A stretch of DNA of 64,000 bases from a virus (IMGVR_UViG_2904156775_000002:11714-75713); one strand, 5' to 3'; positions 34,393 through 57,788 are shown, numbered from the stretch's first letter. Made by a program: numbers and translations. The notes: generated by a model from the sequence alone, not told the origin.

Positions 34393-37026
34393 TTATAAAG
34401 CATGCCAATTTAGTTTTAAGTTAAAGCTTTCTGTCACGCTGCTATGATAATTATAGAATGTCAATTTTAAAGCTATTACACTACCATCGTTAGGGTCAGG
34501 CATGAGGTCAGCATCATAGAGCATCGTATAGCTTCGTGCCCATACTCTCGGCGATAATACATGAATACCGTAAGGAGGCGTATTCCTTTGTCCAGATACA
34601 TGTCCCCGCACGTTATCTACATCTACATATGTAGCCCATAGGGAACGACCAAGCCCGTCAGCATTATTGGCTGCCTTGCGCCCTACAGTTAATTGTGCGC
34701 CATAGTTGAAATTATCGTATTCCGTATTACCCTCTAACGAGATGGATAGATTGAGACTGCGGCGACCTTTGCCTATTGGGATATAATAGGTTTGATATTC
34801 TTTGGGTCCAACAGAGACGCTTAAGGGTCTGGCTCCATATGGAGTGCCTCCAAATGCGACATCTCCTCCCTCCGTCCGGATTGATCGCTCATCTCGGTAC
34901 CGAGGATCGTGGTATATTCGCTCTTTGAATAAAGGAAAACCGTTAGGATCAAAATGTTTATTAATATTTAGATTTCCTCCAGGGTCTTCACCGCCATATC
35001 CAATTAATATATAGCCTATTCGAAGACTACCGTCCGGCGGATTAGGAGGATATGCAATTCTTCCCCCTTCTGTACCAGCACTCAAGTAATGTATAGTACT
35101 GTTCTTATCAATGTATAGATATCTATATTCCCAGCCGTCTAGATCGCTTTCGGATACAATTAATGAACGGTTACTAAACCTAGTCTCAGGTATTAGCTTA
35201 TACGACCCATCCGGCATAATAACCTCAGAAGCTGAAACTACGATGTCAGCTGTCAATTTGGGCCATAAAAAAACAGACCCTGATTTCAAGTAATTATCAC
35301 TTACCCCATTTACTCCAGTGAAGGAGTTTGCAGTTTTACCTGTGTATTCAAATTCATAAACAAATCCAAATAAGTTAGGGTTAGTTATATCGTTAATATA
35401 GGCAGTCCCGCTTTCCGGAAATTGCTCCGTCGATTCCACATAAATCGTAGAAGCATTGATTGCGACAGCTGATGTCAACAACGTTTTAACTACCTCTTGC
35501 TTTCGATTCTCTATTCTAATAATACCACCGCTATGAATTCCTTTTCCCGCGATATCGTCAAGTCCTTTTTGTGTAATAGAACTCCAAGCATCTTGTAAGG
35601 CTTGCCTCAGGTAGGCTAGTTTCCCGGATAAAGCTGCGAATTTAGAGTTGACCTCTGCTCGTTCGTCCGGAGTAATTCCGGAGTCTGCAATTGCTGTCTC
35701 AATTGCGGTTAGCAGATCGTTAAAAGAAATATCATACTGCCGTTTAGCGTTTCCAAGGGCACTTTTCAACGTTACATTAGTCAAATATAAACTGGAATAA
35801 ATCCGTTCGTATTCTGCATCCACATCCGCTTTTTCCTTGGCCAACTGGAGCTTATGCTCAGCTATGATTTGCTTTTCAGCTTCACTAATCAGACCGTCAG
35901 CAAACGAAGTCTCTATATAGTCTTCAAAATCATATTGTGCACGCTCAAGCTCCAATTGCTGCTGCTCCAGCTCAGCAGTACGCTTCTCCACCAGCATTTG
36001 GTACTCCCTTTGTTTACGACGGTATTGGAGCAAATAGTCAGAAACGTACAGCTCGCGATAATTGCCTAATACAAATCTAGGCGAGACTCGCTTTTCAAAC
36101 GGATTGCGTTCATGCTCATAAATTCTGGCTGATAAATGATACCCCATCTTCTCATTGATAACCAGTACGTCATCTCCAACGTTTACTTCACTGAGCTCAA
36201 TCGATTCAATATCATAGCTTTCACGCGGTAGTTCGTAATTCTTCAAATATCGCTCCATTACAGCTAACAACTTTGATTGTTCATCGATGTCGGACCATTC
36301 CATCTTTCCTTCATATGGGCGCTGTGAATCGTAGTAAGGAGAGTCTAAATATTTTTTTGTATGCCCCAAATAACCCTCAATCGTCAACCCATCTTTTCCG
36401 TATCCATATAACCGCGTAATTCGCTCCGTATCTTGAACAGTACGACGAATGGATTTCAGATTTTTGCGGTAACGAATTTGTTTACCTGAATTAACTCCCT
36501 TTCGAGTTGTGAAGGTAACCGTATAGTTGTCGTATGATAAATCCGCATTAAACACTTCACGCAGCTCATGAAGAAGAGCAAGCTTGCTCTTCTCACCCCA
36601 TTCAAATATATCTTGGGCAATGAAAGTACCATTAATATTAAACATGAACGGCGTTCCCGCAAAAAGTCGAGTAAGCATTGTCTCAATGGTTTGCGCAGCT
36701 GCAAAATCAATATAGTCTTCATGATAGTAACGGCCCAAATCAAAGAAGATATGATGAGCTTCAATCTCCATATATGCATTTGACACATCATGTTTCTCAT
36801 CTGACTTCCAAATCAGAAAACGCTGGTCTTTTTCAATCTCATTTGGAAATCTGATTTCATAACCCGTTTCAATCATTTCGTAACGTTCATCGTCCCCTGG
36901 CAGTTTAGGATAACGAAATGTAATATAATATTCGCCGTTTAATACTTCGCGAACACGAACGGAAGAGGCGGCTGGCAAATAGGCCAACCGCCCCTCGTTA
37001 CTCCATAACTCTAATTTGGAAATCAT
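34393..37026 (-). CDS. Tal / prophage tail spike protein
   Basis: REVLNGEY, KQIRYRKNLKSI, ITRLYGYGKDGLTI, DGLISEAEK repeat. Confidence 0.8.
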   Translation of the reverse strand: MISKLELWSNEGRLAYLPAASSVRVREVLNGEYYITFRYPKLPGDDERYEMIETGYEIRFPNEIEKDQRFLIWKSDEKHDVSNAYMEIEAHHIFFDLGRYYHEDYIDFAAAQTIETMLTRLFAGTPFMFNINGTFIAQDIFEWGEKSKLALLHELREVFNADLSYDNYTVTFTTRKGVNSGKQIRYRKNLKSIRRTVQDTERITRLYGYGKDGLTIEGYLGHTKKYLDSPYYDSQRPYEGKMEWSDIDEQSKLLAVMERYLKNYELPRESYDIESIELSEVNVGDDVLVINEKMGYHLSARIYEHERNPFEKRVSPRFVLGNYRELYVSDYLLQYRRKQREYQMLVEKRTAELEQQQLELERAQYDFEDYIETSFADGLISEAEKQIIAEHKLQLAKEKADVDAEYERIYSSLYLTNVTLKSALGNAKRQYDISFNDLLTAIETAIADSGITPDERAEVNSKFAALSGKLAYLRQALQDAWSSITQKGLDDIAGKGIHSGGIIRIENRKQEVVKTLLTSAVAINASTIYVESTEQFPESGTAYINDITNPNLFGFVYEFEYTGKTANSFTGVNGVSDNYLKSGSVFLWPKLTADIVVSASEVIMPDGSYKLIPETRFSNRSLIVSESDLDGWEYRYLYIDKNSTIHYLSAGTEGGRIAYPPNPPDGSLRIGYILIGYGGEDPGGNLNINKHFDPNGFPLFKERIYHDPRYRDERSIRTEGGDVAFGGTPYGARPLSVSVGPKEYQTYYIPIGKGRRSLNLSISLEGNTEYDNFNYGAQLTVGRKAANNADGLGRSLWATYVDVDNVRGHVSGQRNTPPYGIHVLSPRVWARSYTMLYDADLMPDPNDGSVIALKLTFYNYHSSVTESFNLKLNWHAL

Positions 37027-37172
37027 TCCAACTCGCCGCCTTCAACTCCAGGTGAGCTTGTCTCTATCATCAACATTGTTCGATATGGCTCAGGAACATA
37101 ATCAATTGGGAGCCGCCCTGATTGGACTGCTGTACGGTACATTCCAAGGTAGATTTCGTTTACATTATTCAT
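37023..37172 (-). CDS. Small XkdX/CD1375-like phage protein (not in the ORF track)
   Basis: MNNVNEIYLGMYRTAVQSGRLPIDYVPEPYR..., 49 aa; RBS ggagg; stop overlaps the Tal start (ATGA). Confidence 0.6.
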   Translation of the reverse strand: MNNVNEIYLGMYRTAVQSGRLPIDYVPEPYRTMLMIETSSPGVEGGELE

Positions 37173-37350
37173 CTGCATTTCCTCCCTCCAATATTTCAAT
37201 TCTATTTCTTAAATAATCGACTTCTGACATAAGAACTGTAAGTAGCATAGTCGCCATCTCCATGTTCAGCTGAAATGTACTTTTATGAGGAGCCACCTCT
37301 ATCCCCTTTGACTTGAGATAATCCACCGCATTTTGCAATGATGGTTCCAT
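37165..37350 (-). CDS. Small tail fibre chaperone-like protein
   Basis: 61 aa, translationally coupled after the fibre gene; LRNRIEILEGG end. Confidence 0.55.
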   Translation of the reverse strand: MEPSLQNAVDYLKSKGIEVAPHKSTFQLNMEMATMLLTVLMSEVDYLRNRIEILEGGNADE

Positions 37351-37351
37351 A

Positions 37352-39880
37352 TTATGCCTCCTCCAGCGCTAATAGTCTTGCGGTATGCTGTGCCAATATC
37401 CAATCTTGTACGCCATCATGCGTCTTAATTGATGCGATATCTTGAGCAGATTGTGCCACAACACTGCTAAGAGTAGTTTGATAAGATATTGAAGCTTCCA
37501 ATGCGTTTGATGTATATAAATGCTTATCTAATACAATATAGTCAACATAGACATTGTTGAGATCATTCAGCTCAGATACAGGTATTGATGCTCTACTGGT
37601 TCCATAAGCATTATTGGATACTACAACCTTCCATTTTTCATTTCGATTGCCACCATCATAAACAGCAGTAATCAATGCTGCCCTGCGATTTAACTGAGAG
37701 CCAGAGGGAATCTCGTAGCTAGGCGTCGTCACGTTCTGCATATTAATGAAGTATTCGTTGTTCGTATTAACTCCAACGCCTCTAACCGGGTTGACCTTCT
37801 CACGAATGACCATTCCTTCAAGTAGTTCAATCATATTTCCGCCAGATTCCAATGATAATCCGCCTTGGTCATCTGCAATTTGTTCAATAACTGGAGTCGA
37901 TAACACATAATCCAGTGTTGCCCAGGCTTCCCAGCCCGGAGCTTTATTGTTTGCGACAAAAGCCTCGGTATTGGTGACTGGCGCTGCTCCTGTCAGAATC
38001 GAAACCCAATTTGTATACGAATTACCGTTATTTCCACTGGCGCGCCAACCATTGCTTAACGCTGCAACTGCGTTATTATTGGGATTAACGTTATCTATCC
38101 AACCACTATCCTCGTTTGTTACCGATAACACCACACCACCATATGCGGTGTTTAATCTAAATTCATTTGGGGCATTTTGAGCATTGTTTATGATATCTTG
38201 TCTGAGAATCGAACCATCGTACTTTACGGCAACAGCGCTATCATTAACATAGTCAGCTATTACATTACGCACAATTCTCTTGTATCCGCTAAAGTTTGAA
38301 TGGAACACCCACCCCATTGTCCGGTCCAGTTTAACCCCCGTCCGCCAACGTCTAAACACTTTCCCCGTAGCGCTATCATAATTGTCCGTAATGCTTCGGT
38401 CAGCGTTACTCGCGAGTGGTACGGGACAATGAGCATATTGGTCGACCCGAGGTTCAAATAAGGCTGGGAGTTGATCTGCGTCGCCGAGAACAAGCATCCA
38501 ATCCTTAAACTCAAATGTCCCAGTCGTGCCAGCATACATTGTGATTCGTATTCTAACAACATCGGATTGCGTCACAAAGGTCCCGTATGACGAATTTCCA
38601 GCAGGTAAAATTATTCGTTCTGTATACTTGCTTCCATCCGCCCTTTCCTCAAGTACTGAAGCATAATTACTTGTCGAATATCTAAACCATGCAAATGTAT
38701 ATGTTGTCTGGGGTGTGACGTTTGGATTTATCAGACAACCATAATCTGTTGCGGCAGAAGCATTAAGCGACACGTTATACTGGTTGATTAATACGGCATT
38801 ATTATGAATGTAATCTGGCACGCCTAGCAACAGGTTTTTACCCCTCTTCCGTACATTCACGCCCTGCAAATGTTTTACTCCGTCTATATACGGCAAGTAG
38901 GCGTCAAGAGCGTCGCCTTTTAAAGTAGTACCAATGGTTGCAAAGTCGGCATCTGACACTTCATAAATACGAAAAGAATCAATAAAAGCAGTGCCTGTCG
39001 TCGAAGTAACACCACTTGTTCCTACATACAACCTAAAGCCATCTGTTGTAATTACATTATTTTTAGGTATTTTCACATAGACAAGTTGCCAAGTCCCTGT
39101 AATCGTCGATGATGCAGCGGCGCTATATCTTTGGTTAACTCCATTATTTTTATCGTATATCCGGATGGCAAAATTACCTTGAGTAATGGAGTCAATATAA
39201 ATCCATCCAATAAGTAAATACTGTTTACTCCATTCGAGTTTATATGAATAATCCTTGTAGAGTAAGCTATTCTCGTTTGATACAAACTTAAATGATTTAC
39301 TACCTGTCTTAAACCGTTCTGTGGATAACACAACAGGCGATCCGTACGAACTAAATGAATCTAACCTCTCACACCCTCCATCGCTACCAGTTATATTAAC
39401 CAATGTCCGACCCTTAACCTGTACGGTCGCCCCGCTCGCTTGTGTTGTATTAACAACATTCATACCCCGATTAAGCATCGTTGTCTGATCGCGATCCTCC
39501 ATCTGGCGCCTTTCCATTCGATCCAATCTCGCCTTCAGCACTGGATGAACTGTACCGTCTGATCCGGCTCTCGCGTCCACAATTTCGGAATTGCTATTTC
39601 CAGCTTGTCCAACAATGCCATTAATCCTCTGGTTTTGACTGTCAATCGCTTCCTTAACATTTCTAGCTCCGCTGACTGGGCCGCTATACGTAATGCGATC
39701 CGCAGGGTGAGCTGTGGTACTGGAAGTGTGAGCGTTGTCTGCGGTCATGCGGGCTTGTTGCTCCGCGCTCACTTGCTGTTGAAGTGAGCTCAAATCGGCA
39801 TGGGCACGATCAAAATTTCGATTGTGTTTAGCTAAGTTATCAAGATCAAGCATCTTGTCTATTTTTTCAAATCGACTCAT
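37352..39880 (-). CDS. Tail fibre / receptor-binding protein
   Basis: NSEIVDAR...VLKARLD, VKGRTLVN, carbohydrate-binding-like domains, LDYVLSTP. Confidence 0.75.
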   Translation of the reverse strand: MSRFEKIDKMLDLDNLAKHNRNFDRAHADLSSLQQQVSAEQQARMTADNAHTSSTTAHPADRITYSGPVSGARNVKEAIDSQNQRINGIVGQAGNSNSEIVDARAGSDGTVHPVLKARLDRMERRQMEDRDQTTMLNRGMNVVNTTQASGATVQVKGRTLVNITGSDGGCERLDSFSSYGSPVVLSTERFKTGSKSFKFVSNENSLLYKDYSYKLEWSKQYLLIGWIYIDSITQGNFAIRIYDKNNGVNQRYSAAASSTITGTWQLVYVKIPKNNVITTDGFRLYVGTSGVTSTTGTAFIDSFRIYEVSDADFATIGTTLKGDALDAYLPYIDGVKHLQGVNVRKRGKNLLLGVPDYIHNNAVLINQYNVSLNASAATDYGCLINPNVTPQTTYTFAWFRYSTSNYASVLEERADGSKYTERIILPAGNSSYGTFVTQSDVVRIRITMYAGTTGTFEFKDWMLVLGDADQLPALFEPRVDQYAHCPVPLASNADRSITDNYDSATGKVFRRWRTGVKLDRTMGWVFHSNFSGYKRIVRNVIADYVNDSAVAVKYDGSILRQDIINNAQNAPNEFRLNTAYGGVVLSVTNEDSGWIDNVNPNNNAVAALSNGWRASGNNGNSYTNWVSILTGAAPVTNTEAFVANNKAPGWEAWATLDYVLSTPVIEQIADDQGGLSLESGGNMIELLEGMVIREKVNPVRGVGVNTNNEYFINMQNVTTPSYEIPSGSQLNRRAALITAVYDGGNRNEKWKVVVSNNAYGTSRASIPVSELNDLNNVYVDYIVLDKHLYTSNALEASISYQTTLSSVVAQSAQDIASIKTHDGVQDWILAQHTARLLALEEA

Positions 39881-39900
39881 ATTCTTACGCTCCTTTCGAA

Positions 39901-40722
39901 TTAATAAAGATAAGTGTGTCTGAAAATAAAATCGACCGTGAGATTGGCTCCGGTCGCTGAAATCGTAATTTTATTTTCCCCTTCAATAAGTCGAGGAAAC
40001 TTGCCCGTTGCACCGCTCACTGCACTAATTCCATTCTTGAGGATCGTTTGCTCAAGCGGAGCACAATTGATCTCGACTACATCATTAGCTGTCATCACGG
40101 TGTTTATCGTTAGTGATTCTGATGTCGCCGTATTGGTGATCTTAATGTTGGACCCGCTTCCTCTCATTCGAATGACAGGAAATGCTTCATGTGTTCCAGC
40201 GTGATATATGAGTTGAGACTTAGGCGATGTTGTAACTCCGAAGGAATAAGTATCGCCGTAACGTAAACCCATTCCAAACAAATAATTTTGCCCATATTCA
40301 AGCATTTGATGGGATTCCAATACACTTTCGGAGAAAGGATAGAAAGCCTTAAAGGGCAGAGTAAAGGATCCAAGAGACGCTATTTTTTCGATGGAGATTG
40401 TGCCATTGTACTTAGCCATCCACCGTTTACCCGGCATGCGGTCCAATACAAGCGGCTTGCTGCCCAGGCGAGCGTTGAACACTTTGGCTAATCGTTGCAA
40501 GGCTGCCTGATACTCAGACTCATCCTTTGTCAGCAATTCCACCGTTACTTCAATCATGCGTGGGCCATACCTCATCTCCATATCAAGAGAACCATCTAGT
40601 CCTGGCAAAGACTCTTCCTCTTGAATAGTTTCCGGAAGCAATGGAAGATTCACACCTGTTACAAGCAATCCAAGAGACGCAAAAGAGACGCCGCCATAAC
40701 TAGCCCCGCCATTATCGGTCAT
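39901..40722 (-). CDS. Distal tail protein (Dit)
   Basis: LPGLDGS..YGPRMI, FTLPFKAFYPF, FPRLIEGENKI; directly after TMP. Confidence 0.85.
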   Translation of the reverse strand: MTDNGGASYGGVSFASLGLLVTGVNLPLLPETIQEEESLPGLDGSLDMEMRYGPRMIEVTVELLTKDESEYQAALQRLAKVFNARLGSKPLVLDRMPGKRWMAKYNGTISIEKIASLGSFTLPFKAFYPFSESVLESHQMLEYGQNYLFGMGLRYGDTYSFGVTTSPKSQLIYHAGTHEAFPVIRMRGSGSNIKITNTATSESLTINTVMTANDVVEINCAPLEQTILKNGISAVSGATGKFPRLIEGENKITISATGANLTVDFIFRHTYLY

Positions 40723-43700: not shown

Positions 43701-44234
43701 TATACCGGCTGATTCGATCATACCGGAATTACCTGATTTTATGCCGGATACAACCTGCCCTATCGCTTCTCCCCATCCGAGATGGGCATCACGATTATAA
43801 GCAGCGGCATTTGCGGTAGCATAGATCAGTTCTCGAGTTTGCTCCAAGTTGAGACCCGACGATAACGCTGTTTGTATAGCAGTCGAAGCCTCCGATAAAG
43901 AAATAAATCCTTTTTTTGCCAATTCCTCAGCAAGGCCTGTCGTTTCCTTAACGCTTATCCCAAGTGTCCTGGCTACTTCTGACATTCCATTCATCGAGAA
44001 TGCTAATTGATTGGCTTCTTCCGTTAATGATTTTACAGTATTGATAAGACCAGAAAACGCTGCTCCTGCTCCCAAAGCTGAAAAGCTCTTTTCAAGCTCA
44101 GCCCATTTATCCTTAGTCTCGCCTGATTCATTCTTTACGCTCTCCAGGAGCTCGCGTACCCGTTCCATTCCTTCCTTGAACTGGTTCATCTCCAGTTCCA
44201 TACGAACTTTAATTGCTTTTATTTCAGTCGTCAA
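40719..44234 (-). CDS. Tail tape measure protein
   Basis: 1171 aa; Ala/Gly-rich core, hydrophobic segment, coiled coil, FHTGGIAG...DEIAAILRAGEVILTP. Confidence 0.92.
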   Translation of the reverse strand: MTTEIKAIKVRMELEMNQFKEGMERVRELLESVKNESGETKDKWAELEKSFSALGAGAAFSGLINTVKSLTEEANQLAFSMNGMSEVARTLGISVKETTGLAEELAKKGFISLSEASTAIQTALSSGLNLEQTRELIYATANAAAYNRDAHLGWGEAIGQVVSGIKSGNSGMIESAGITTNLSAMHERYATKIGITADRLTEGEKVQAAFTGVLENAAQFAGNAEEALDSYAGTQMIFNNTLEMARMELGEAFMPALQELMELVMPIIVRFTQWVESNKELVAGLSAAGIGIVGLIAGFTSLITILGAVRAAATALSISFGPIGWVVAALSLAGIGLAGYISASNVAAESVNKLAIAQGELNDKLSQSPTDRTVEDIKAMQADIEVLNEVLDRRSRLMDEYNQRMLDAEEGRGSIENTHALMNLVDEVKAVDKELKAMGYTATDAKFAVQEMNKAIDESGPAIREMRMEGLQEAAAKQNQITETKKLADQYESLRNKTGLTAEENGQLTSIVRQLTSTYPSLHAEMDAQGKLLITNEELIRNIIKAEEDSLRYTLTAEAAKRQSLIRTTEASITTAETHLAALTAVMDIEPQKAPWAEELTDNDLFIHNVNQNSVSKLVDKATTQLDSLKANLSQYKIELSAIENGTWVKLFDLPDISSNDEKGTDKGTGKGGKKLRAEEIAKQHYDAELNLLEKKRLLGTLTLQQEHDKLEKLAEVNKKYDDIWMDAESRRQRVAEQIAANAKELAEEQAREEEAAHRRSFDKSSEWIEKEKRLMTERGDSERDIVIMQLEAWTRIRSRYASDTEYYKQADRALYEARMALRRLDEAAAKDAVEAAKKEQSELTKSFLDQIDKRRKAELDALDEQRRKTEEHYDNLLRGIDESERGRERQSIEEEAEKYKFASSEKGQKRYKELQEQLRKMNIEDSKRALQEERDNKLAEFEKQKKDIESWYADLKIAAETFSGDIGPIYQLMEDNRLSAFRNTNKTLLAEADQFQKDLSAKYGAVVQAQSGPSPSELADIAQMEANSKAWHTEGKDQKQKLSDSNKELGEKLGAHYNSKEGKWYKDGVKLFHTGGIAGVSNFSAGNMLMPDEIAAILRAGEVILTPQQITDLVMKREAGEERIVHHNYYGPLIENNGDVRLEDQADINSYHREQDHLVRQMIARGERPV

Positions 44235-44239
44235 CTTCG

Positions 44240-44617
44240 TTACCTCCTTCCTACTTGACCACGCAACTGTTCAAATGCACTGCGGTCAAATTCATCTTCT
44301 GGCATTTTTTCTGCCGGGTTCGCAATAAACTCAGCCTGCAGACTCTTAGCCAGCCGTTCATATGCTTGTTGATCAGCACTCTGGCTGACGATAGCGATAT
44401 TTAGTGCTATAAGCCGGTCCTCCGCCTTTGCCTGGGCTATGTACCATAGAATCATAGGCAAATCAATGAGGTAATACTCCGTTTCGAGCGATCGCTGGCT
44501 TACCCCCAGGCTGACTGAAGCTTGTAGAAGAAAATCATCAAGCGTTACACCATTTTGCCGTCGCCCGGTGCCTTCATGCCGAGTCCCAACTGTCCGAGGA
44601 CGGCCCGGAAGTTTTTT
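44240..44617 (-). CDS. Tail assembly chaperone GT extension (reached by -1 frameshift)
   Basis: The -1 frame is open from the A AAA AAC slippery site (44617-44611) to the stop at 44240. Confidence 0.7.
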   Translation of the reverse strand, partial: KKLPGRPRTVGTRHEGTGRRQNGVTLDDFLLQASVSLGVSQRSLETEYYLIDLPMILWYIAQAKAEDRLIALNIAIVSQSADQQAYERLAKSLQAEFIANPAEKMPEDEFDRSAFEQLRGQVGRR

Positions 44618-44955
44618 AATGTGCGCTGCAAATCATTTTTCTCGAGCGTCAAACGAATGAAATCTGTAATTTCGTTCAAATCTGCATGTGACGAAATATA
44701 CTCTGCATCCATATCCGCCAGCACAGCAACCAGCTGGACCATTTCATCCAATGCCAAATTAGCGCCAGCCAGAACCGTTGCAACGAAATCATCCGTATCC
44801 CGATCTGCCAACACACGAATAACGATGGCCGGAAGCGTCTCAATACGTTCAAACAAAGCCTTGTACTTCTCTGGAGTTAATTTTGGAATCTGAACCGTTT
44901 TATCCCCTAGCTGGACACTATCTTGTTGCGATTGACCAAATAATTTTCCTATCAC
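44545..44955 (-). CDS. Tail assembly chaperone G
   Basis: Between major tail and TMP; contains LKN at the slippery site. Confidence 0.8.
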   Translation of the reverse strand: MIGKLFGQSQQDSVQLGDKTVQIPKLTPEKYKALFERIETLPAIVIRVLADRDTDDFVATVLAGANLALDEMVQLVAVLADMDAEYISSHADLNEITDFIRLTLEKNDLQRTLKNFRAVLGQLGLGMKAPGDGKMV

Positions 44956-44987
44956 AGCAATCTCCCTTTCCTTTTGTAAAATAGAAT

Positions 44988-45010
44988 AGACGGCTCATAT
45001 GAGCCGTCTG
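44988..45010 (-). terminator. Hairpin after the major tail gene
   Basis: Palindrome agacggctcatatgagccgtct. Confidence 0.55.
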
Positions 45011-45018
45011 CGTGCCTA

Positions 45019-45558
45019 TTAAACCGATTTTGCGTTCGGATCACCGATACCAAGCAGCAGTCCATTTGTATCTGGGTAGCCTTTGAACGTCACATTCGTA
45101 ACGAGCTCATTGTCATAGGAATACGTGTAGTTCAAAGTTGTTGTTGGCGCTGCTTTATACAAAGTGATCGTATCGTTGGCCGTAGCTGTGGAAGACAGCG
45201 GCTCAATTCTCACTTCTTTAGCATAATCGATCAAATCCACAATTTTGGAAGCATCCACGTCGACGCGTTGCTTAGTAGGATCCGTCTTATCCGTTACCAG
45301 GGTCGAACCCGGAATGACTTTAGCAAGCTTGACCAGATCGTATTCAGCGAACGGCACGGCAAGCGATGCCTTTCTACCTGTAATTATTTCCCGAACTGGC
45401 GTAGTGCCGAATTGGTCGACGACGACTTCACGCATCGTCATCTCGTACGTAAGTACCACGCCGCCTTTCGTTGTTTCAAAAACGACCGGAGTCGTACCGC
45501 CTACGTCAAACGTTACCTTGCATGGACCTAGCTTAACTTTTGTTGTATCAGTTGCCAT
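45019..45558 (-). CDS. Major tail (tube) protein
   Basis: MATDTTKVKLGPCKV...TKGGVVLTYE...DQFG...VTFKGYPD; ATG at 45558 after aggagg. Confidence 0.85.
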   Translation of the reverse strand: MATDTTKVKLGPCKVTFDVGGTTPVVFETTKGGVVLTYEMTMREVVVDQFGTTPVREIITGRKASLAVPFAEYDLVKLAKVIPGSTLVTDKTDPTKQRVDVDASKIVDLIDYAKEVRIEPLSSTATANDTITLYKAAPTTTLNYTYSYDNELVTNVTFKGYPDTNGLLLGIGDPNAKSV

Positions 45559-45607
45559 AATAAAATTCCTCCTAAATGTTGTTTGTGATTTTATCGTATA
45601 AAAAATC

Positions 45608-45985
45608 TTAAAAACGGCTAAGCATAATAGCTGTGAAATTAATGGAATACAACACTCTATGATAATCGTCGAGTCCAAGATAGAGAGGCGCGGATTGGTC
45701 AGCAAATATAGCCAAAATATGTTCATCACCGATCTGACAATCATGGCGGCGATGAAATTCCTCATATATGGTGTTGGCTAGCTTCTCTGCAGCGGGGCCG
45801 TTATCTCCGCGCACTACAATTTGAATGGAAGGTCGACGCTGGCTTGTCCATTGGCTGGGGACAGTACCGCTATGAATTCGTACATAACCGGAATTATCTT
45901 CAGCCGATACCGGAAATTCATTCGGATAATACGTATAAGGCACGACAGACTGTACGAACGCAACTAGTTCAGTTATGGCAAACAC
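45608..45985 (-). CDS. Tail terminator / minor capsid-type neck protein
   Basis: PSIQIVVRG...QSAPLYLGLD...YSINF. Confidence 0.7.
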   Translation of the reverse strand: MFAITELVAFVQSVVPYTYYPNEFPVSAEDNSGYVRIHSGTVPSQWTSQRRPSIQIVVRGDNGPAAEKLANTIYEEFHRRHDCQIGDEHILAIFADQSAPLYLGLDDYHRVLYSINFTAIMLSRF

Positions 45986-45988
45986 ATC

Positions 45989-46390
45989 CTATCTCCACTC
46001 CTTTCCGATTTCTTTTGCAAGATTGTTCACAAAGTCCTGATAGTTTTCCTGAAAGGGACGCTCCAGAAACTTCAGATGTTGTGTTGTGTTTGGATCGCCG
46101 CCAACTTCATGCAAGTAGATGGCACTCTTCTCATCCTGTGCATCCTCGCTACGAATAGCGGCAAAATATACCTCGCCTACTATATTGGAGCCTTCCGATT
46201 TTATATCAATCCAGGACTCAAGGAGAGGCTGGTCTCCGTTGACTGGCGCCAGCTGCTTAGCTTGCTTGTGCAGCTTTTCCATAGATCTTCCGATTTCGCT
46301 TTCAGCAGCGGTTAGCGTAGACCCTAGCATTGAATTCAGAAAATTCTCAACTGCAGAATCGTCATATGTTATTTGGAAAGATTGTGTCAT
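45989..46390 (-). CDS. HK97 gp10-like tail completion protein
   Basis: AKQLAPV...LHE...KFLERPF. Confidence 0.7.
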   Translation of the reverse strand: MTQSFQITYDDSAVENFLNSMLGSTLTAAESEIGRSMEKLHKQAKQLAPVNGDQPLLESWIDIKSEGSNIVGEVYFAAIRSEDAQDEKSAIYLHEVGGDPNTTQHLKFLERPFQENYQDFVNNLAKEIGKEWR

Positions 46391-46707
46391 TTTGCGTGCA
46401 CCACCGTATAGACCGCACTTCCATTCAGCCAGCGTTTGCGTTGGATCTGAACAACATGGTATACACGTTCGTTTTCTAATTCATCCGTATACTTAAATGT
46501 ATGGGAAGCTGAAATGGCAGCAAATCCCTTCAGCCATATTTGGACTGTCGACACAGCTTGTTTTCCGTGCGGGTCTGTTATGACTTCCGTCTGCACTTGA
46601 ATACGGCATTTCAGCATAACAGGATTATCCCAGGACTGTGAATTCCATGGATGATTGCTGCCAGGTGGGCATAACATAATGTTTTGTTTAAGTGGAATCA
46701 ATCCCAT
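46387..46707 (-). CDS. Head-closure / head-tail joining protein
   Basis: MGLIPLKQ...LKCRI...GKQAVS; position in the neck module. Confidence 0.65.
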   Translation of the reverse strand: MGLIPLKQNIMLCPPGSNHPWNSQSWDNPVMLKCRIQVQTEVITDPHGKQAVSTVQIWLKGFAAISASHTFKYTDELENERVYHVVQIQRKRWLNGSAVYTVVHAK

Positions 46708-47097
46708 TTACAGCACCGTCCATTTCAATGCTCGACGAGAGAAAGATGCTTCTGGATTAGCATCTGTAATTAGCCTTAGAACCTTATCGGTTATTAAGCC
46801 GTCAAGTCCTGTCTTAGTTGACTCCTTGTACGTCACTTCTGCAACACCGGTTAATGAGTACGATTGGATCCCATGCTGGCGCAGCCGATTCACATCATTA
46901 AAAGCGATCGCCAATTCGTTCGCATATTCGTAAACTGCTGAATCCGGAATCGTAAAGCCTCGGTAGGATCCGAGAAGCATTTGCTTTGCTGTCAGCAGCA
47001 GCCTTTGCTTCCTTACTTCTTCTGAGTCAAACCAGTCCTCAGAATCAATACATTGCATACGGATATAATCATCCGCATCCAATACTGCAATTGCCAA
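46708..47097 (-). CDS. Head-tail connector protein
   Basis: ADDYI...W...KQRLL..A...IPDSAVYE...GIQSYSL; TTG start after ggagg. Confidence 0.7.
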   Translation of the reverse strand: MAIAVLDADDYIRMQCIDSEDWFDSEEVRKQRLLLTAKQMLLGSYRGFTIPDSAVYEYANELAIAFNDVNRLRQHGIQSYSLTGVAEVTYKESTKTGLDGLITDKVLRLITDANPEASFSRRALKWTVL

Positions 47098-47124
47098 AAT
47101 TATCGCCTCCCTCCGCATCCTCGT

Positions 47125-47622
47125 TTATATGCTGTTTTGTTTAAGCCTATTTTGCGAGGAGGTAGTCAACACAAAAATGTGCTTCTTTTTCAGCAAGGCT
47201 TCAAGCGCCTTCCTCATTCCGACAACTTGCCCGTTTGCATCTACCGAGATTCCCGATTTATCCAACAGCCTATAAGCTTCATCAATCGCCTCTAAACGCA
47301 GATTAGCATGGGCTGCCGCTCGCTTATATTCAGCCTTCTTCACTCTTTCGACAGCCAATTTAACCATGGATGAGGCAATCGCCTCCGCACGTGTGGCAAT
47401 TTCTTTCGAGGCTTTTAGCTCGGCTTGAATACGTATCAATTCTCTCAACGATGCCTTCTCTTGCTCGCATTCAACAGTCAGTTGATCCAACAATGCCGTT
47501 TTTAATGACTCTATCTCGCCGTATTTTTTACGTTCCCGAGCAATTCGTTTTGCAATAATGGCATCAAACTCTTCCTGCGTCAGATTAATGGTATCCTCTG
47601 TAGATTGATTGTGTAAGTTCAT
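47125..47622 (-). CDS. Capsid scaffold protein (possibly C-terminally degenerate)
   Basis: TQEEFDAIIAKRIARERKKY; LDKSGISVD..GQVVG...ALEAL. Confidence 0.7.
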   Translation of the reverse strand: MNLHNQSTEDTINLTQEEFDAIIAKRIARERKKYGEIESLKTALLDQLTVECEQEKASLRELIRIQAELKASKEIATRAEAIASSMVKLAVERVKKAEYKRAAAHANLRLEAIDEAYRLLDKSGISVDANGQVVGMRKALEALLKKKHIFVLTTSSQNRLKQNSI

Positions 47623-47698
47623 CGTATTATCCTCCGTGATTTGCAGCGCCGTCGCGCTTTTCTCCGTCAGTTTAAGGACATGCCGTAGGTCCGGTCGA

Positions 47699-49015
47699 TT
47701 ATTTTATCTGCATGTGTCCCCATTGAATATCGGGGTACTGGGGAGTATAGGATACAAAGCCTGCCGCTCCTTCATTAGCTGTATTATCGAGCACCATTGC
47801 GGTATACAGAGCTTCCTGAAGTGCCCGCTCCAGATGCATACAGATTCGATTAAGCTTAGAGTACCAAGGAAGAAGCAGCGTTTTCAGCGCATCGCCATCT
47901 GTGGCCGCATGATTACCAAGAAATTTGCTATACAACCATTCAGGAAAATCTGATTGCATAAATAGGAGTGAGAGCATGGTATCCAGTTCTTCAAAAGCGT
48001 CCTTCAGCTGTGATTCCCACTTCATATACCCTGGCAAGGGATCATCCTTGCCAACTGGAATATATTTACTGGAAATCCGAAGCTCTTTGGTCCCTATACC
48101 GTCCTCCAGATCGTTTGGTCCGTAGGCTATTGGATCTGCATGTTTCCATAAGATGTAGTCGATATGGGATAATCGGTCATGTATGGCTGCTAATATAGAC
48201 TCCGACTTCTCAATGCCGCCAATGCCTCTCCAATCATCATCTACTGTTTTGTAAGGAATGTGAAAAACCAGCAGCCCATCTGCTCCAGTAGGAACGATAT
48301 CCTCTTCCCTGCCTGTCGGCACTTGCTCAGTTATAGAGTAAACAGGCCTGCTTACACCATAGCTATCCTCTTTCCCGATTAGTTCCAGCTTGAATTTTTC
48401 ATACTGAATATAACCTGGTAGATGACGTTCAACGTGCAAGTAATTGACTTGCTCATTACCGGAACCTACTGATTCTATGCATGTGAGATTTATAGCTCTG
48501 AACCTGTTCTTGTTACGCTGTCCCCCTTCAGGATAAACTGAAGACGCTTGGGCAATTTCCATAATGGCATCTGCCTTTGTGTTAGGTTGAGCCAACGCTT
48601 CCTCTACTAGGCCTCCTAGTTCCTCAGTTACACCATAACTAATCTTGAGCCAGGAGTCGCCGCGAATGCCGCTTCCGGTTACCAGTTCATGAATAAGCCG
48701 CTTCAAATGATTCTTTCGTATCATTCGGTCTAGAGCAGTTTGTGCCGTTGATTCATTGACTCCCTCTACCTTGAATGATATTGTGCTTCCCGCAATCATA
48801 TCCGCTGGCTTTGAGATTAAGGTATCCATTACATTTATGGCTACGTTCAGCTTTGCAAGCTGCGGTTCCAACGGGGTATCGCGCAGCAATTCTGAAATAC
48901 GGCTGTACATGAGACGTCGGCCTTCATAAACTGCTTTGCTTCGTTCATATTTAGCAAGCCGTTCAATATCCTCAGCTGGCGGGAATAAACCGCCGACTTG
49001 AAATTTTTTTGCCAC
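47699..49015 (-). CDS. Portal protein, SPP1 gp6-like (probably C-terminally shortened)
   Basis: FPPAEDIERLAKY, GIRGDSWLKI, LVFHIPY, DRLSHIDYILWKHADP..YGP. Confidence 0.85.
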   Translation of the reverse strand: MAKKFQVGGLFPPAEDIERLAKYERSKAVYEGRRLMYSRISELLRDTPLEPQLAKLNVAINVMDTLISKPADMIAGSTISFKVEGVNESTAQTALDRMIRKNHLKRLIHELVTGSGIRGDSWLKISYGVTEELGGLVEEALAQPNTKADAIMEIAQASSVYPEGGQRNKNRFRAINLTCIESVGSGNEQVNYLHVERHLPGYIQYEKFKLELIGKEDSYGVSRPVYSITEQVPTGREEDIVPTGADGLLVFHIPYKTVDDDWRGIGGIEKSESILAAIHDRLSHIDYILWKHADPIAYGPNDLEDGIGTKELRISSKYIPVGKDDPLPGYMKWESQLKDAFEELDTMLSLLFMQSDFPEWLYSKFLGNHAATDGDALKTLLLPWYSKLNRICMHLERALQEALYTAMVLDNTANEGAAGFVSYTPQYPDIQWGHMQIK

Positions 49016-49117
49016 CTTTCTGCCTCCTGTCGTTAGGAATTCGAATTATTTCGTGAATGGGATAAATGACCTTCATAACGTATAGGTTTGAGAGCAATCA
49101 AAAAAGGGGGATGAATT

Positions 49118-49131
49118 AGAACAAATGTTCT
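49118..49131. promoter_or_regulatory. LexA (Cheo/SOS) box upstream of the portal gene
   Basis: AGAACAAATGTTCT matches the Bacillota GAAC-N4-GTTC consensus. Confidence 0.75.
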
Positions 49132-49193
49132 CTTTTTCTATAATTAATATAGTTATAGGGAAAATAAAAACGCCAACAATGGCGTTCAGAGTG

Positions 49194-49589
49194 TTACTGA
49201 TGCATTAACTCGAAATGCGAACGGCGTCTCTTTGTAGGCTTCCGATAATTCCGTCCGTCAGCTCCCGTTTCCTCTACTGCTTTAAGCCCTGTTTCACGGT
49301 CATGCCGCAGTTTCATTTGCCATTCACTCAGAAAGGGATATTCGTTATGTGCGATTTTATACACATCCGGATCCGACAATTCTTCTTTTAATATATAATT
49401 GCTTAACCGATTGAGCTGGTTAGAGTCAGGGGTATTTCCGGTCAGAGAAACAAAACTATCAATGAGTGCAGCAATTGTGGCAATACGCTTTTTTCTCTCA
49501 GGAGTATGGTATGCAATTATTTGCGTCACAGCATCTTCAAAGCTCGCCTCGGCAACGCCCAGTTTTGATTCCCACTCTGTTAGTATCAT
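49194..49589 (-). CDS. Phage protein partnered with the sigma-like activator
   Basis: QLNRLSNYIL.EEL.DPD.YK....EYPFLS..Q; coupled to the upstream gene. Confidence 0.6.
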   Translation of the reverse strand: MILTEWESKLGVAEASFEDAVTQIIAYHTPERKKRIATIAALIDSFVSLTGNTPDSNQLNRLSNYILKEELSDPDVYKIAHNEYPFLSEWQMKLRHDRETGLKAVEETGADGRNYRKPTKRRRSHFELMHQ

Positions 49590-49975
49590 GAATGTTCCTC
49601 CCCCTCATACTCGACAATCACATGTGCATAATTCCATTGAACAAAGATTGCTGTAATACGTTCTACTCCAGCTGCGACCAGATCCTTTACGCTATCTTTG
49701 CGTATCCCCATCATCTCTGCCGCTGCTTGTTGCGTTGCATCATTTTCATATATCCAGGCGACTGCTTCTCTCTGGCGGTTCGTAAGTCCAGCTATTTGTA
49801 TTGCTGTATTCAAATCGATCAGAATATCTGATGCCGACATATCGCCTCTTCCTCTACGAGCTGAGATTCTATGCTGATCACGAAGCAATTGCTTGACTCC
49901 AGTGGAAGTATTAAGGGCATATTCTTGAGCATATCTTCTTGCGTTTTTCATCATATCCAAGTTGTTCATCCGCAT
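49586..49975 (-). CDS. Sigma-70 region-4 / ArpU-like late transcription activator
   Basis: DILIDL..AI..AGLTNRQREAV...TQQAAAEMMGI helix-turn-helix. Confidence 0.75.
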   Translation of the reverse strand: MRMNNLDMMKNARRYAQEYALNTSTGVKQLLRDQHRISARRGRGDMSASDILIDLNTAIQIAGLTNRQREAVAWIYENDATQQAAAEMMGIRKDSVKDLVAAGVERITAIFVQWNYAHVIVEYEGEEHS

Positions 49976-50025
49976 TTAGTTGTCCCCCGTTTTTTTTAAT
50001 GATTGAACCCACCAACAATAAAAAA

Positions 50026-50039
50026 CGAACTTATGTTCT
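50026..50039. promoter_or_regulatory. LexA (Cheo/SOS) box overlapping the operon transcription start
   Basis: CGAACTTATGTTCT directly downstream of the -10 element. Confidence 0.8.
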
Positions 50040-50040
50040 T

Positions 50041-50069
50041 ATTTTATCTATGAAAAGTACAAGAGTCAA
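50041..50069 (-). promoter_or_regulatory. Sigma-A promoter of element 2
   Basis: TTGACT-17 nt-TAAAAT on the minus strand. Confidence 0.75.
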
Positions 50070-57574: not shown

Positions 57575-57788
57575 TTTCCAAGACCTCCTATTTTGTGAGC
57601 TAACCTCATTATAGGATAAGATCCCGGCTGCTATGATTGGCGTTATTAAGGGGAATATGTGCGTTTTTACGGAAATGGGGCTCAATGGCGAAAAAAGGAT
57701 ATCTTATTCTCATTTGACGGGTGAGCTGGTACAATGAATATAACTTTCATCTCTTCCAACCCATTTCTACCAATAAAGGGGCCGTGTT

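Follow-up and report, generated by a model that had tools for sequence, protein, structure and literature searches.

Tailocins are thought to be phage tails that were co-opted by bacteria. Among the described systems, the monocins of Listeria monocytogenes have loci that carry their own regulators, and PBSX of Bacillus is an SOS-responsive, domesticated phage-like element of a spore-former whose late genes need the small sigma-like protein Xpf. In monocin particles the cap consists of the terminator FtbF and nothing else, and the accessible part of the source makes no mention of a portal or connector (PMC11830787). In the Enterococcus faecalis efagins, head-related genes are stated to be wholly absent. 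Deletion of the major capsid or the portal gene was found to turn phages into killing tail particles, according to the available portion of PMC10670071, and intermediates between phage and tailocin are called scarce by the authors in the available text of PMC12713668.

We analysed a window of 64,000 nt, which is the whole stretch of DNA in the virus record IMGVR_UViG_2904156775_000002:11714-75713, from a host that is a Paenibacillus-family bacterium. A single operon of ~15.7 kb lies on its minus strand (50069-34393; all genes below are on this strand).

Gene content of the operon and its phage relatives

The operon opens with a sigma-like regulator and its partner gene, which are followed by portal and scaffold, three neck genes and the tail genes for terminator, tube, G/GT chaperones, tape measure protein (TMP), distal tail protein (Dit), p842 and Tal; all the regulator-to-tail ORFs named in the initial annotation were found on the minus strand and were open. 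Profile searches (PHROG, Pfam and TIGR) revealed a complete siphovirus-type tail module and matched no sheath family. The same head-less element was also found at the same chromosomal locus in an IMG/VR provirus contig (G255), with every frame open and both flanks syntenic, and Logan contigs run from the element into chromosomal flanks.

The first of the neck genes, c136 (46708..47097; phrog_10959), is head-tail adaptor-like and encodes 129 aa from a TTG at 47097, the ATG ORF starting at 47118. When its model was used in a fold search, the top 13 matches by Z (7.4-4.2) were all phage neck or adaptor chains, including YqbG and SPP1 gp15, which is suggestive of an adaptor identity. It is followed by c106 (46387..46707), which is head-tail connector or closure-like on a weak match to phrog_3881 (4e-4) and is syntenic in relatives, and by the 133-aa neck protein c133 (45989..46390), whose position is conserved in relatives and whose dN/dS was 0.34. 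No family match to c133 was obtained in the PHROG, Pfam or TIGR-type profile libraries, and its earlier label as "gp10-like" found no support in any of them.

The tail module begins with the tail terminator (45608..45985; PF12691, 1.8e-14; 94% amino acid identity to G255) and the 179-aa tail tube protein with an Ig-like domain (45019..45558; phrog_2175, 3e-45; dN/dS 0.037), after which a terminator-like hairpin lies at 44988-45009. In the genes of the tail assembly chaperones G and GT (44240..44955; phrog_18210), the heptamer A AAA AAC at 44617-44611 provides a -1 slippery site; G and T overlap at the end of G, T being in the -1 frame, and since G255 has the same heptamer in the same phase, the tail module looks functional. 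Next come the TMP of 1171 aa (40719..44234; TIGR01760 and several TMP PHROGs; dN/dS 0.114) and Dit (39901..40722; PF05709, PF22768, phrog_33). The variable tail protein p842 (37352..39880; 842 aa; phrog_13022, 4e-84) was 58% identical in amino acids to G255, its residues ~160-450 gave no alignment at >=80% in any of four metagenome runs, and it is a candidate receptor-binding protein or fibre. The small protein p61 (37165..37350) was 63% identical in G255 and was ruled out as a holin because it has no membrane helix. The operon ends with the 877-aa Tal or tail spike (34393..37026; PF06605, 1.9e-35; TIGR01665), in which the N-terminal Prophage_tail domain is conserved and the C-terminus is variable, the G255 homologue being 1026 aa long and 69% identical.

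The initial annotation had claimed that there was no room for terminase, minor capsid or major capsid genes, and this was borne out by the spacers, which measured 178 bp between regulators and portal, 76 bp between portal and scaffold, and 6 bp between scaffold and c136 (27 bp if the likelier TTG start is used). In the phage relatives, terS/terL, the minor capsid gene and the SU10-type major capsid gene were found precisely at these three short spacers. The order in the relatives is TerS-TerL-portal-minor capsid-scaffold-SU10_MCP-neck, the gap genes being named by Pfam as terminase, minor capsid protein 2 and SU10_MCP, and the portals of the prophage relatives are 42-53% identical to that of the element. 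The distance from reg2, the partner gene, to the portal was 6-11.5 kb in relatives versus 178 bp here; in the nine of 11 fetched prophage loci with a tblastn match to the scaffold, portal and scaffold were 1.2-2.8 kb apart, and scaffold and adaptor 1.5-3.5 kb. In phage Tripp (Halcyonevirus), the late genes were found to follow the same order, terS being preceded by the sigma gene and a homologue of reg2, and Tal being followed by holin/lysin. Tripp and the related Paenibacillaceae prophages share the late-module order of the element, which begins with the sigma-like gene and its partner, continues with portal, scaffold and neck genes and then has the Ig-domain tube, TMP, Dit and Tal; unlike the element, they hold terS, terL, minor head and major capsid genes, full-length portal and scaffold, holin/endolysin, integrase and repressor.

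The truncated form was found in none of 73 genomes of other species of the genus, six of which held full-length relatives (46-51% identity), and in a sample of the family 14 of 200 genomes gave a match, all 14 of them full-length. The truncated element is narrowly distributed and limited to a few close lineages.

The MCP, minor capsid and TerS proteins of the relatives gave no tblastn match in the genome, where a distant TerL fragment was all that appeared, and the cognate capsid family PF17236 was not found in it, the same profile search being positive in two of two control genomes. Between the flanking host genes, integrase and replication genes were absent, and no holin or endolysin was present in either the window or G255. 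On contig C20 of the genome lies at least one prophage that looks complete, its genes covering terminase, portal, protease, HK97 capsid and tail as well as holin and endolysin.

The element is surrounded by prophage debris, including a recombinase fragment and, within the window, a neighbouring prophage. This prophage carries a holin and an amidase and is absent from G255. A separate remnant outside the window holds a TerL fragment and an integrase fragment, which lie 22-26 kb upstream, together with split Tal pieces and transposases.

Two other kinds of element were rejected: a gene transfer agent, as no capsid or terminase is there to package host DNA, and a phage satellite (PICI or cf-PICI), as integrase, replication, packaging and capsid-redirecting genes are lacking and the locus is fixed in two lineages.

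Portal, scaffold and selection

The portal gene (47699..49015; phrog_533, 2.9e-25) encodes a crown-less protein of 438 aa, compared with 500-565 aa in relatives. It stops after ..YPDIQW and has a 7-aa deletion in the tunnel loop, and solved portals continue for 30-110 aa past the aligned range. The AF2 model (pLDDT 76) aligned to the 80alpha/SaPI1 portal with a Z of 25.3 over 342 residues and to SPP1 gp6 with a Z of 23.1 over 326 residues, and thus shows an SPP1 gp6-like portal fold with wing, stem and clip. No Pfam match to PF05133 was obtained at E 0.001 or better; in one full-length relative, the PF05133 match mainly covered residues 395-551, a region missing or changed here. When the 187 columns conserved at >=90% in 39 full-length relatives were compared, 21 were found to be deleted (four in the tunnel loop and 17 in the crown), and 49 of the 166 retained columns were changed. 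Such changes affected 15 of 25 columns in residues 361-400 versus 3 of 37 in residues 241-320, and nearly all of the changed columns were also changed in P0002.

The scaffold remnant (47125..47622) has 165 aa, versus 224-235 aa in relatives, and was recognised by three scaffold PHROGs and by PF06810 at 1.2e-6, which is under the Pfam cut-off. Its coiled-coil core is retained; missing are ~45 aa at the C-terminus and the LNLQxFAE/Pro-rich stretch at the N-terminus. Crown loss, the remodelled tunnel loop and the loss of the scaffold C-terminus had been overlooked in the initial annotation, as had the absence of a lysis cassette. Its statement that the operon keeps portal and scaffold was right in that both are present and under purifying selection; both are nevertheless truncated relative to relatives, and a crown-less portal with a shortened scaffold alters what "keeping" them means.

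The element was compared with G255 over a 10,958-bp colinear alignment (window 50214-39362; 84.2% identity), which spans all three deletion junctions, and all 16 compared ORFs were intact in both copies. Among the events listed (12 of 50), the indels in coding sequence were whole codons and those of a single base lay in spacers. By the simple NG86 method, with G255 as the one DNA-level comparator, dN/dS was 0.04-0.34 over all 14 element genes compared, dS being saturated for c136, p842 and Tal. Values were 0.04-0.12 for the tail genes, and 0.08 and 0.14 for the host genes on the flanks. The portal was similarly low at 0.152 (Sd 87, Nd 55; binomial p 9e-23), as was the scaffold at 0.179 (p 1e-9), and both stayed below 0.27 in every sub-region tested. 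A third lineage was recovered from Logan contigs; the portals of the three lineages have 438, 438 and 439 aa with a pairwise identity of 88-89%, and the scaffolds 165, 161 and 161 aa. The head-less state is older than the split of at least three lineages, and all remaining genes, the portal without crown and the shortened scaffold among them, have been under purifying selection since the lineages split. Synteny and dN/dS in related genomes, proposed earlier as a check, favour domestication, as G255 has the same architecture with values of 0.15 and 0.18 for portal and scaffold.

Promoter, LexA boxes and regulators

The best promoter match in the region was P1, a sigma-70-type TTGACT-17-TAAAAT (50041..50069, minus strand; 10 of 12 positions). 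A LexA (Cheo) box, GAACATAAGTTC on the operon strand, starts 3 nt after the -10 (50027..50038), and a second box with the GAAC-N4-GTTC motif lies in the spacer between reg2 and portal (49119..49130). Both the box at the +1 of this promoter and the one before the portal had been reported in the initial annotation; both were recovered here and are conserved in G255, the first identically and the second with both half-sites retained and an altered spacer (GAACGTTAGTTC). From the -35 through the first box, 46 of 48 positions were identical in G255, and the surrounding flanks contained indels. By its motif and its conservation, a Cheo-box operator adjoins the promoter, and LexA is predicted from the motif to bind it.

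GAAC-N4-GTTC occurred three times in the window versus 0.77 expected, a count reached in 4 of 100 shuffles, and two of these three sites lie in the two regulatory spacers of the operon. Genome-wide, the motif showed no enrichment (69 found versus 88 expected), and its AT-spacer subset was mildly enriched (9 versus 5). It also stands in the promoter of the lexA gene of this genome and ahead of a DinG-like helicase gene, and the recA box has one mismatch. No box was detected upstream of sig in any of the 19 phage-relative loci carrying a sig homologue, and the LexA boxes are a derived trait of the head-less lineage.

The first gene, sig (49586..49975; 129 aa), encodes a sigma-70 region-4 HTH protein (phrog_3512, 3.6e-25; PF04545, Sigma70_r4) with a dN/dS of 0.09, is homologous to TRIPP_83, the "sigma factor" of phage Tripp, and is a candidate late activator. 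Its partner reg2 (49194..49589; 131 aa; phrog_13088, 3e-30; dN/dS 0.16) overlaps it by 4 nt and is 42% identical to TRIPP_84, which adjoins the sigma gene in Tripp. Directly after reg2, a hairpin like an intrinsic terminator (49168..49187, minus strand) is retained in G255 with a changed loop. Downstream of the second box, a block of 42 nt (49071..49112, minus strand) is identical in G255 and, judged by this conservation, is a candidate late promoter or leader element.

Interpretation and comparison with known systems

We regard the locus as a domesticated, probably SOS-wired, F-type-tailocin-like element with a remodelled portal and neck, which is likely to give a DNA-damage-induced, tail-shaped particle of unusual build. 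The full explanation towards which we lean is that the late operon of a temperate siphophage was domesticated, is controlled by LexA and yields a necked, tailocin-like tail. The ancestor would have been a temperate siphophage of Paenibacillus of the Halcyonevirus-like kind, its late operon becoming fixed between host genes. Of three clean deletions, one would have taken terS/terL and small genes, another the minor capsid gene and the crown of the portal, and the third the gene for the major capsid protein and the C-terminal part of the scaffold, and the lysogeny, replication and lysis modules would have been lost as well. Host LexA would occupy the box overlapping the start site of P1, a putatively strong sigma-A-type promoter, and a second box would stand ahead of the structural genes; upon DNA damage P1 would be de-repressed, and the sigma-like protein and its partner would turn on the structural operon.

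The product would be a complete non-contractile tail, ~175 nm long by the rule of ~0.15 nm per TMP residue, acting like an F-type tailocin whose specificity would be set by p842 and the C-terminus of Tal. The portal would no longer move DNA and would most likely be a ring binding the adaptor/stopper neck atop the tail terminator. The scaffold core may be kept as the ring-assembly chaperone of the portal, after the P22 scaffolding protein, which triggers portal ring formation according to the available parts of PMC5529062 and PMC13386823. For release, the element would need an external factor, for instance host autolysis or a prophage induced at the same time. The domestication claimed in the initial annotation is upheld by synteny with G255 and dN/dS. 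The lack of lysis genes in the conserved element counts against a self-sufficient tailocin.

A bolder form of this explanation, which we hold tentatively and consider rather doubtful, is that the element is a natural "necked" tailocin and a living phage-to-tailocin intermediate, directly switched by LexA and with the portal inside the released particle. A crown-less, DNA-blind portal dodecamer would then be integral to that particle, built with the help of a scaffold lacking its coat-binding end and attached to the tail terminator by way of the adaptor, stopper and tail-joining proteins, so that the proximal end would be capped differently from that of monocins, where the terminator alone serves as cap. 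Loss of host LexA would switch the element on, the promoter and operator having been born at a deletion junction. Since in the known F-type particles the terminator by itself forms the cap, according to the accessible text of PMC11830787, a portal cap would be unprecedented, and dispensable for a working tail.

Alternatively, the element could work with another resident or infecting phage, through piggy-back release, tail donation or capsid borrowing, and not be a free-standing bacteriocin. Its lack of own lysis genes, the complete-looking prophage on contig C20 and the second prophage next door agree with this, and the retained portal-binding neck genes would suit head-tail joining. We nevertheless consider such dependence unlikely, as the resident heads differ (HK97 capsid and protease, each with its own portal) and no SU10-type capsid is present, neither the crown nor the conserved tunnel loop is left in the portal, and the part aligning to the C-terminal region of relatives is missing from the scaffold; in P22, coat binding resides in an HTH domain of the scaffold, according to the available part of 10.1101/2022.12.13.520362. 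Moreover, the neighbouring prophage is missing in G255, where the element is intact, integrase, replication and packaging genes are lacking, and the flanks are fixed.

It is more improbable still that the truncated portal and scaffold act as dominant-negative proteins poisoning capsid assembly of related phages, the tail genes being selected separately or not at all. Oligomerisation cores are kept here, packaging parts and, by analogy, the putative coat-binding parts are gone, and full-length phage relatives occur often in the family (14 of 200 genomes); against this, portal and scaffold share an SOS-box operon with tail genes that show equal or stronger constraint, and expression only after DNA damage would fit defence against infection poorly. 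That the locus is an inert prophage remnant, whose head genes were lost by chance and whose other genes have not decayed so far, is scarcely credible in spite of the surrounding debris (with a second remnant holding integrase and TerL fragments), the truncation of portal and scaffold themselves and the absence of lysis genes, being largely refuted by dN/dS of 0.04-0.34 in 14 genes with a strong synonymous excess in portal and scaffold, by open frames in two DNA-level copies differing by 16%, by truncated lengths maintained in three lineages, and by conservation of the frameshift site, promoter and boxes.

The domesticated, LexA-controlled late operon that we favour would be of interest in several ways. 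With capsid, terminase, lysis and lysogeny genes gone and a remodelled portal and scaffold kept by selection, it would offer a dated and testable intermediate or an alternative design. It also offers a natural experiment on a portal without DNA packaging, in which wing, stem and clip are constrained and tunnel loop and crown are lost, and a case of rewiring, in which a late activator of phage origin appears to have been linked to the SOS repressor of the host. It is a possible tailocin of Paenibacillaceae, a family for which none was described in the literature searched by genus or by head genes.

PBSX differs from the element in being contractile, in having heads, terminase and lysis genes, and in its control through a repressor of its own. 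The engineered Salmonella deletants (S117, Fels-1/2 and Gifsy-1/2) are a laboratory analogue, in that they lose the major capsid gene and keep other head genes, as far as their available description goes; they are recent and retain lysis, replication and the remaining head genes, whereas the element is natural, old (dS 0.3-0.8) and trimmed. Like the element, the efagins and the F-type pyocins are domesticated, non-contractile and chromosomally fixed, with variable specificity regions; the element differs in keeping two head-derived genes and in its confinement to a few close lineages. The monocins, too, have a tail module of the non-contractile siphovirus type in the chromosome of a Bacillota host, without capsid or terminase and with the same kinds of component as here, from terminator, tube and chaperones through TMP and Dit to hub and side-fibre proteins. 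Lysis genes, present in monocin and known F-type tailocin loci according to the available text of PMC12713668, are absent from the element. In contrast to monocins, the element has LexA boxes, and selection has preserved in it a portal without crown, a remnant of the scaffold and three neck genes. F-type tailocins are already known as domesticated tails, and what is new in this variant is that portal and scaffold have been retained under selection without a capsid.

Operon gene content and the missing head, packaging and lysis genes

A single tightly packed row of genes was found on the minus strand, running from window position 50069 to 34393, and its genes were identified with PHROGs, Pfam and NCBIfam. 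The row opens with sig, encoding a 129-aa protein with a sigma-70 region-4 helix-turn-helix (phrog_3512, 3.6e-25), and its 131-aa partner reg2 (phrog_13088), followed by the portal gene (phrog_533, 2.9e-25), the scaffold gene (PF06810 at 1.2e-6, under the Pfam cut-off, together with three scaffold PHROGs) and three small genes at the neck position, c136, c106 and c133 (136/129, 106 and 133 aa). Next come the tail terminator (PF12691), a tube protein carrying an Ig domain, the chaperones G/GT in two frames whose -1 overlap lies at the heptamer A AAA AAC, a 1171-aa tape measure protein (TMP), Dit (PF05709, PF22768), p842 (842 aa, phrog_13022), p61 (61 aa) and an 877-aa Tal (PF06605, TIGR01665). 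The initial annotation had described a capsid-less tail operon with portal and scaffold, and this was confirmed, as were its tight spacers of 178 bp between reg2 and portal, 76 bp between portal and scaffold, and 6 bp after the scaffold (27 bp if the adaptor gene begins at its TTG codon, the likelier start). Foldseek with the 129-aa form of c136 returned nothing at E 0.001 or better. In the VIA fold comparison its 13 best rows (Z 7.4 to 4.2) were all phage neck or adaptor chains, including YqbG and SPP1 gp15, with unrelated chains from Z 3.8 or less; these Z values are middling, and the modelled fold is suggestive of a portal adaptor.

Among 200 other genomes sampled from the family, 14 had portal relatives (31-53% identity), as did 6 of 73 other genomes of the genus (46-51% identity), the named records being Paenibacillus and allies, while scans of genome contigs and metagenome contigs gave four and three loci, holding only relatives at 44-50% identity. 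In the two relative loci annotated with Pfam, TerS, TerL, an SPP1-type portal (562-565 aa) and minor capsid protein 2 come first, and the scaffold (224-233 aa), a SU10-type major capsid protein and neck genes follow. Paenibacillus phage Tripp has the same order, with a sigma gene and a reg2 homologue some kilobases upstream of terS and with holin and endolysin after Tal. Of 11 relative loci retrieved, nine gave a scaffold match, and in these 1.2-2.8 kb lay between the end of the portal match and the scaffold and 1.5-3.5 kb between the scaffold end and the adaptor gene; the reg2-portal distance was 6-11.5 kb in prophage relatives, in contrast to the 178 bp seen here. Judged by the gene order and gaps of its relatives, the operon is therefore a phage late region minus four blocks, namely the genes for packaging, for the minor capsid protein and for the major capsid protein, and the lysis cassette. 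Lysogeny and replication genes are likewise all absent from the element.

The rest of the genome was also searched. tblastn with the relatives' major capsid, minor capsid and TerS proteins gave no match, and the SU10_MCP model, present in both control genomes, had none in this genome. With TerL, only a C-terminal fragment was obtained, ~22 kb upstream and outside the window. The one HK97-type capsid gene lies on another contig, in an ordinary, complete-looking prophage that has its own terminase, portal, protease, tail, holin and lysin. By these searches, the genome offers no substitute for the missing head genes. As for lysis, no holin or endolysin was found in the element, p61 is without a membrane helix, and the conserved sig-Tal unit holds no lysis genes. 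Release is the weak point of the tailocin reading. A co-resident prophage could supply lysis in this genome; the prophage adjacent in the window is not part of the system, by its absence in G255, an IMG/VR provirus contig of a close relative with the same head-less element at the same chromosomal locus.

A heavily broken prophage remnant was observed on the same strand, to the right of the window (G000:C11:181000-200999, 631-12732) and at window 62694-63407. It contains an integrase fragment, transposase genes, an amidase-type endolysin, a 306-aa C-terminal fragment of TerL (53-58% identical to the relatives' TerL) and two Tal pieces, 47% identical to the Tal of the element. This upstream TerL/Tal/endolysin remnant was rejected as the missing half of the element, since its Tal piece reaches only that 47% identity and since the flanks are continuous in G255, where the 7-kb glucanase gene and IS110 copy of the window are missing.

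Truncated portal and scaffold under selection in three lineages

An AlphaFold model of the portal (41-sequence alignment, pLDDT 76.4, pTM 0.74) matched solved portals in Foldseek (E ~1e-11) and in VIA (Z 25.3 with SaPI1/80alpha, Z 23.1 with SPP1 gp6); a PDB sequence search with the portal profile gave no match. Among the best 120 of 171 portal homologues (E 0.001 or better), all but two were 466-554 aa long, and the two exceptions were the portal of the window itself and one 438-aa protein with 89% identity to it. In the alignment, both short portals stop directly after ..YP(D/A)IQW, where the relatives continue for ~70-110 residues, and both miss 7 residues of the conserved loop DKGGTGTSHTDG. 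In the model the loop sits between two long helices (333-354, 374-413), with little chain left beyond the second; solved portals run 30-110 residues past the aligned range. Following the general plan of portals, we take the loop to be the tunnel loop and the missing C-terminal part to be the crown. The 39 full-length relatives define 187 columns with conservation of 90% or more. The portal of the window has lost 21 of these columns (loop 4, crown 17) and differs at 49 of the 166 that it retains, and almost all of the differences recur in the second short portal. Residues 361-400 have 15 of 25 conserved columns changed, versus 3 of 37 in residues 241-320; changes at conserved positions cluster in the same region as the losses of loop and crown.

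The scaffold keeps its coiled-coil core and is without the relatives' last ~45 residues and their N-terminal LNLQxFAE/proline-rich stretch. That its last 18 aa were junk from a deletion junction was rejected, as a similar peptide is read there in a relative. The retention of portal and scaffold put forward by the initial annotation thus stands, but neither protein is whole, and the missing portal crown and loop and scaffold ends had escaped it, as had the lack of a lysis cassette.

G255 (28,099 bp) was reached from a homologous JGI protein of 161 aa with 82% identity to the scaffold. Scanning IMG/VR with the G255 portal gave 11 loci, none besides G255 with the truncated type, and none of the 73 other species genomes examined in the genus carried the truncated form, which makes its distribution narrow. 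Window 50214-39362 aligned with G255 in a single colinear block of 10,958 bp (84.2% identity) that spans all three deletion junctions, and the remaining element and both flanks were matched as well: a NucB-type DNase, an RCC1-repeat protein, UDG, an SLH protein and tRNA-Val downstream, and the genes at window 57.7-60.5 kb upstream. Since these flanks match, and since G255 has neither the 7-kb glucanase gene nor the IS110 copy nor the neighbouring prophage, what is conserved runs precisely from sig to Tal and lies between host genes.

All 16 compared ORFs were intact in both the window and G255. By the simple Nei-Gojobori method, with G255 as the one DNA-level comparator, dN/dS was 0.152 for the portal (Sd 87, Nd 55, dS 0.37) and 0.179 for the scaffold. 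The other ratios were 0.09 for sig, 0.16 for reg2, 0.24 for c106, 0.34 for c133, 0.11 for the terminator, 0.04 for the tube, 0.09 for chaperone G, 0.11 for TMP and 0.12 for Dit, then 0.09 for c136, 0.15 for p842 and 0.08 for Tal, these three with saturated dS, and 0.14 for RCC1 and 0.08 for UDG in the host flank. The synonymous excess was significant (portal p 9e-23, scaffold p 1e-9), and this was true of every sub-region tested. The window and G255 share the truncations and junctions, and therefore all of this divergence arose after capsid loss.

Five Logan sequencing runs from two studies (5-6% of sampled words), with contigs compared from four runs, provided a third lineage, a ~90%-identical relative at a likeness of at least 80%, with 2356 differences and 50 indels; among the 12 indels listed, those in the portal sum to one codon and the single-base ones lie in spacers. 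The portal of this lineage has 438 aa, its scaffold 161 aa and its adaptor-like protein 129 aa, and the portals of the three lineages have pairwise identities of 88-89%. One contig of 4,754 bases is colinear from the scaffold to past the promoter P1, and in another the stretch from scaffold to c106 is at most 986 bases (769 in the window), so there is no room for a capsid gene. Absence of the uncovered stretches 46410-47180 and 38521-39395 was rejected in favour of divergence; P0122, a sequence from a relative, has c136 there at 70% identity. Random decay is refuted by the intact ORFs, the low dN/dS and the three lineages, and synteny and dN/dS in relatives, with a colinear G255, open frames and the portal and scaffold ratios, instead favour the domestication proposed initially. 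The firmest result, read from sequence comparison, is purifying selection on the truncated portal and scaffold, with no capsid gene since before the three lineages split.

Several observations concern exchange and the surroundings. The neck genes (window 45989-47118) share 60-68% aa identity with G255 (c136 dS saturated), their neighbours 88% (portal), 82% (scaffold) and 94% (terminator), and c136 is similar in its Logan and JGI versions; the pattern suggests recombinational exchange of the neck module in the branch of the window. The dS values of sig, portal and terminator (0.26-0.37) are well under those of the flanking host genes (0.84-0.86); once the hosts had diverged, exchange between lineages may have affected parts of the element. 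Just downstream, window 30866-33526 encodes the 886-aa RCC1-repeat protein (80% aa identity with G255, at the ratio given), whose short 'tail protein' PHROG match lies inside one RCC1 repeat; it is probably a host gene. Window 1-28632, on the plus strand, is the tail end of a second, large prophage with a 1750-aa TMP, a 1307-aa YomG_N/Prophage_tail protein, a holin (26683-27150), an amidase (27193-28032) and a serine-recombinase fragment (28255-28632), and is adjoined by tRNA-Val (28729-28803); in G255, AgrB and LytTR host genes follow tRNA-Val and this prophage is absent. On the other side, the gene for a 2335-aa SLH-anchored alpha-1,3-glucanase (50678-57685; GC 53-58% against 44-48% in its neighbours) and an IS110-family transposase (58478-59743) are both precisely absent from G255. 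The glucanase gene does occur in the silage-run relative, and the pattern looks like either loss in G255 or a recent insertion in one branch.

Promoter and candidate LexA boxes

The best promoter match of the region is P1 (TTGACT-17-TAAAAT, 50069-50041, 10 of 12 positions), and the candidate LexA box 1, GAACATAAGTTC, begins 3 nt past its -10. After reg2, a terminator-like hairpin, box 2 (GAACATTTGTTC), a 42-nt block and the portal ribosome-binding site follow in that order. From the -35 of P1 through box 1, 46 of 48 positions are identical in G255, with a 48-nt insertion directly after, and box 2 retains both half-sites there with a changed spacer, so the promoter and two boxes first noticed by the initial annotation held up. 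The window, at 50010-50027, is without the extra 48-65 nt found between box 1 and the sig ribosome-binding site in G255 and in an X2 contig of a relative. Between box 2 and the start of the portal gene, the 42-nt block (49071-49112) has 100% identity to G255, against 88% for the whole spacer; it could act as an RNA leader element or as the promoter that the sigma-like protein recognises.

Genome-wide, the bare LexA motif showed no enrichment (69 found, 88 expected), and sites with an all-A/T spacer numbered 9 against 5 expected. Two of these nine are the boxes of the element, one lies in the lexA promoter with a second box beside it, and one precedes a DinG-like helicase; recA has a box with one mismatch. 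The boxes were then compared at 25 reg2-homologue loci from 24 other genomes, 19 of which also have a sig homologue. An exact box was present upstream of the sig homologue at none of these 19, within the ~370-1100 nt upstream examined, which marks the operator as derived in this lineage. As candidate boxes, they fit a rewiring to host LexA.

Proposed working and comparison with known tailocins

What the three lineages have in common is a head-less tail-plus-neck-plus-portal operon, intact and constrained, with conserved operators of SOS type. In the proposed working, LexA cleavage would open P1, and the sigma-like protein with its partner would drive the structural genes from the conserved region ahead of the portal. 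By a rule of thumb, tail length follows TMP length at ~0.15 nm per residue, and on this basis a flexible tail of ~175 nm would be built, which would act on neighbouring cells as F-type tailocins do. Its specificity parts would be p842 and the Tal C-terminus, because p842 (58% identity) and Tal (69%) are the most divergent proteins, against 83-95% in the tail core (terminator, tube, chaperone G, TMP and Dit); the middle of p842 was not alignable in any of four runs.

In the portal, wing, stem and clip are constrained and the channel loop and crown are lost, a pattern that points to a ring still binding its partners and no longer handling DNA. Such partners would be at hand in the adjacently encoded adaptor-like, closure-like and joining proteins. 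In P22, portal ring formation is triggered by scaffolding protein via the portal wing (PMC5529062, PMC13386823) and coat binding requires a helix-turn-helix domain (10.1101/2022.12.13.520362). By analogy, a scaffold that keeps its core and is without the region aligning to the relatives' C-terminal end would serve the portal only. Selection and conserved boxes speak in part for the domesticated, LexA-wired particle envisaged by the initial annotation; the element has no lysis genes, and particle formation, LexA binding and a capping role of the portal are putative.

In the monocin, the cap is a terminator hexamer, and the available part of the structure paper mentions neither portal nor connector (PMC11830787). 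Efagins are described as having no head genes at all, and the same authors note that intermediates linking phages to elements of this kind are few (PMC12713668). The literature gave no natural tailocin with a retained portal and no characterised Paenibacillus tailocin, although closed supplements and subscription papers could hold one. Salmonella phages are reported to have given killing tail particles on engineered deletion of the major capsid or portal gene (PMC10670071), and therefore a capsid-less phage keeping other head genes can work as a tailocin. Two of the tested features of the described F-type family do not hold here, as the element retains head genes and has no lysis cassette of its own. 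We therefore place the element among those that would work like F-type tailocins, rather than with the strict members of the family.
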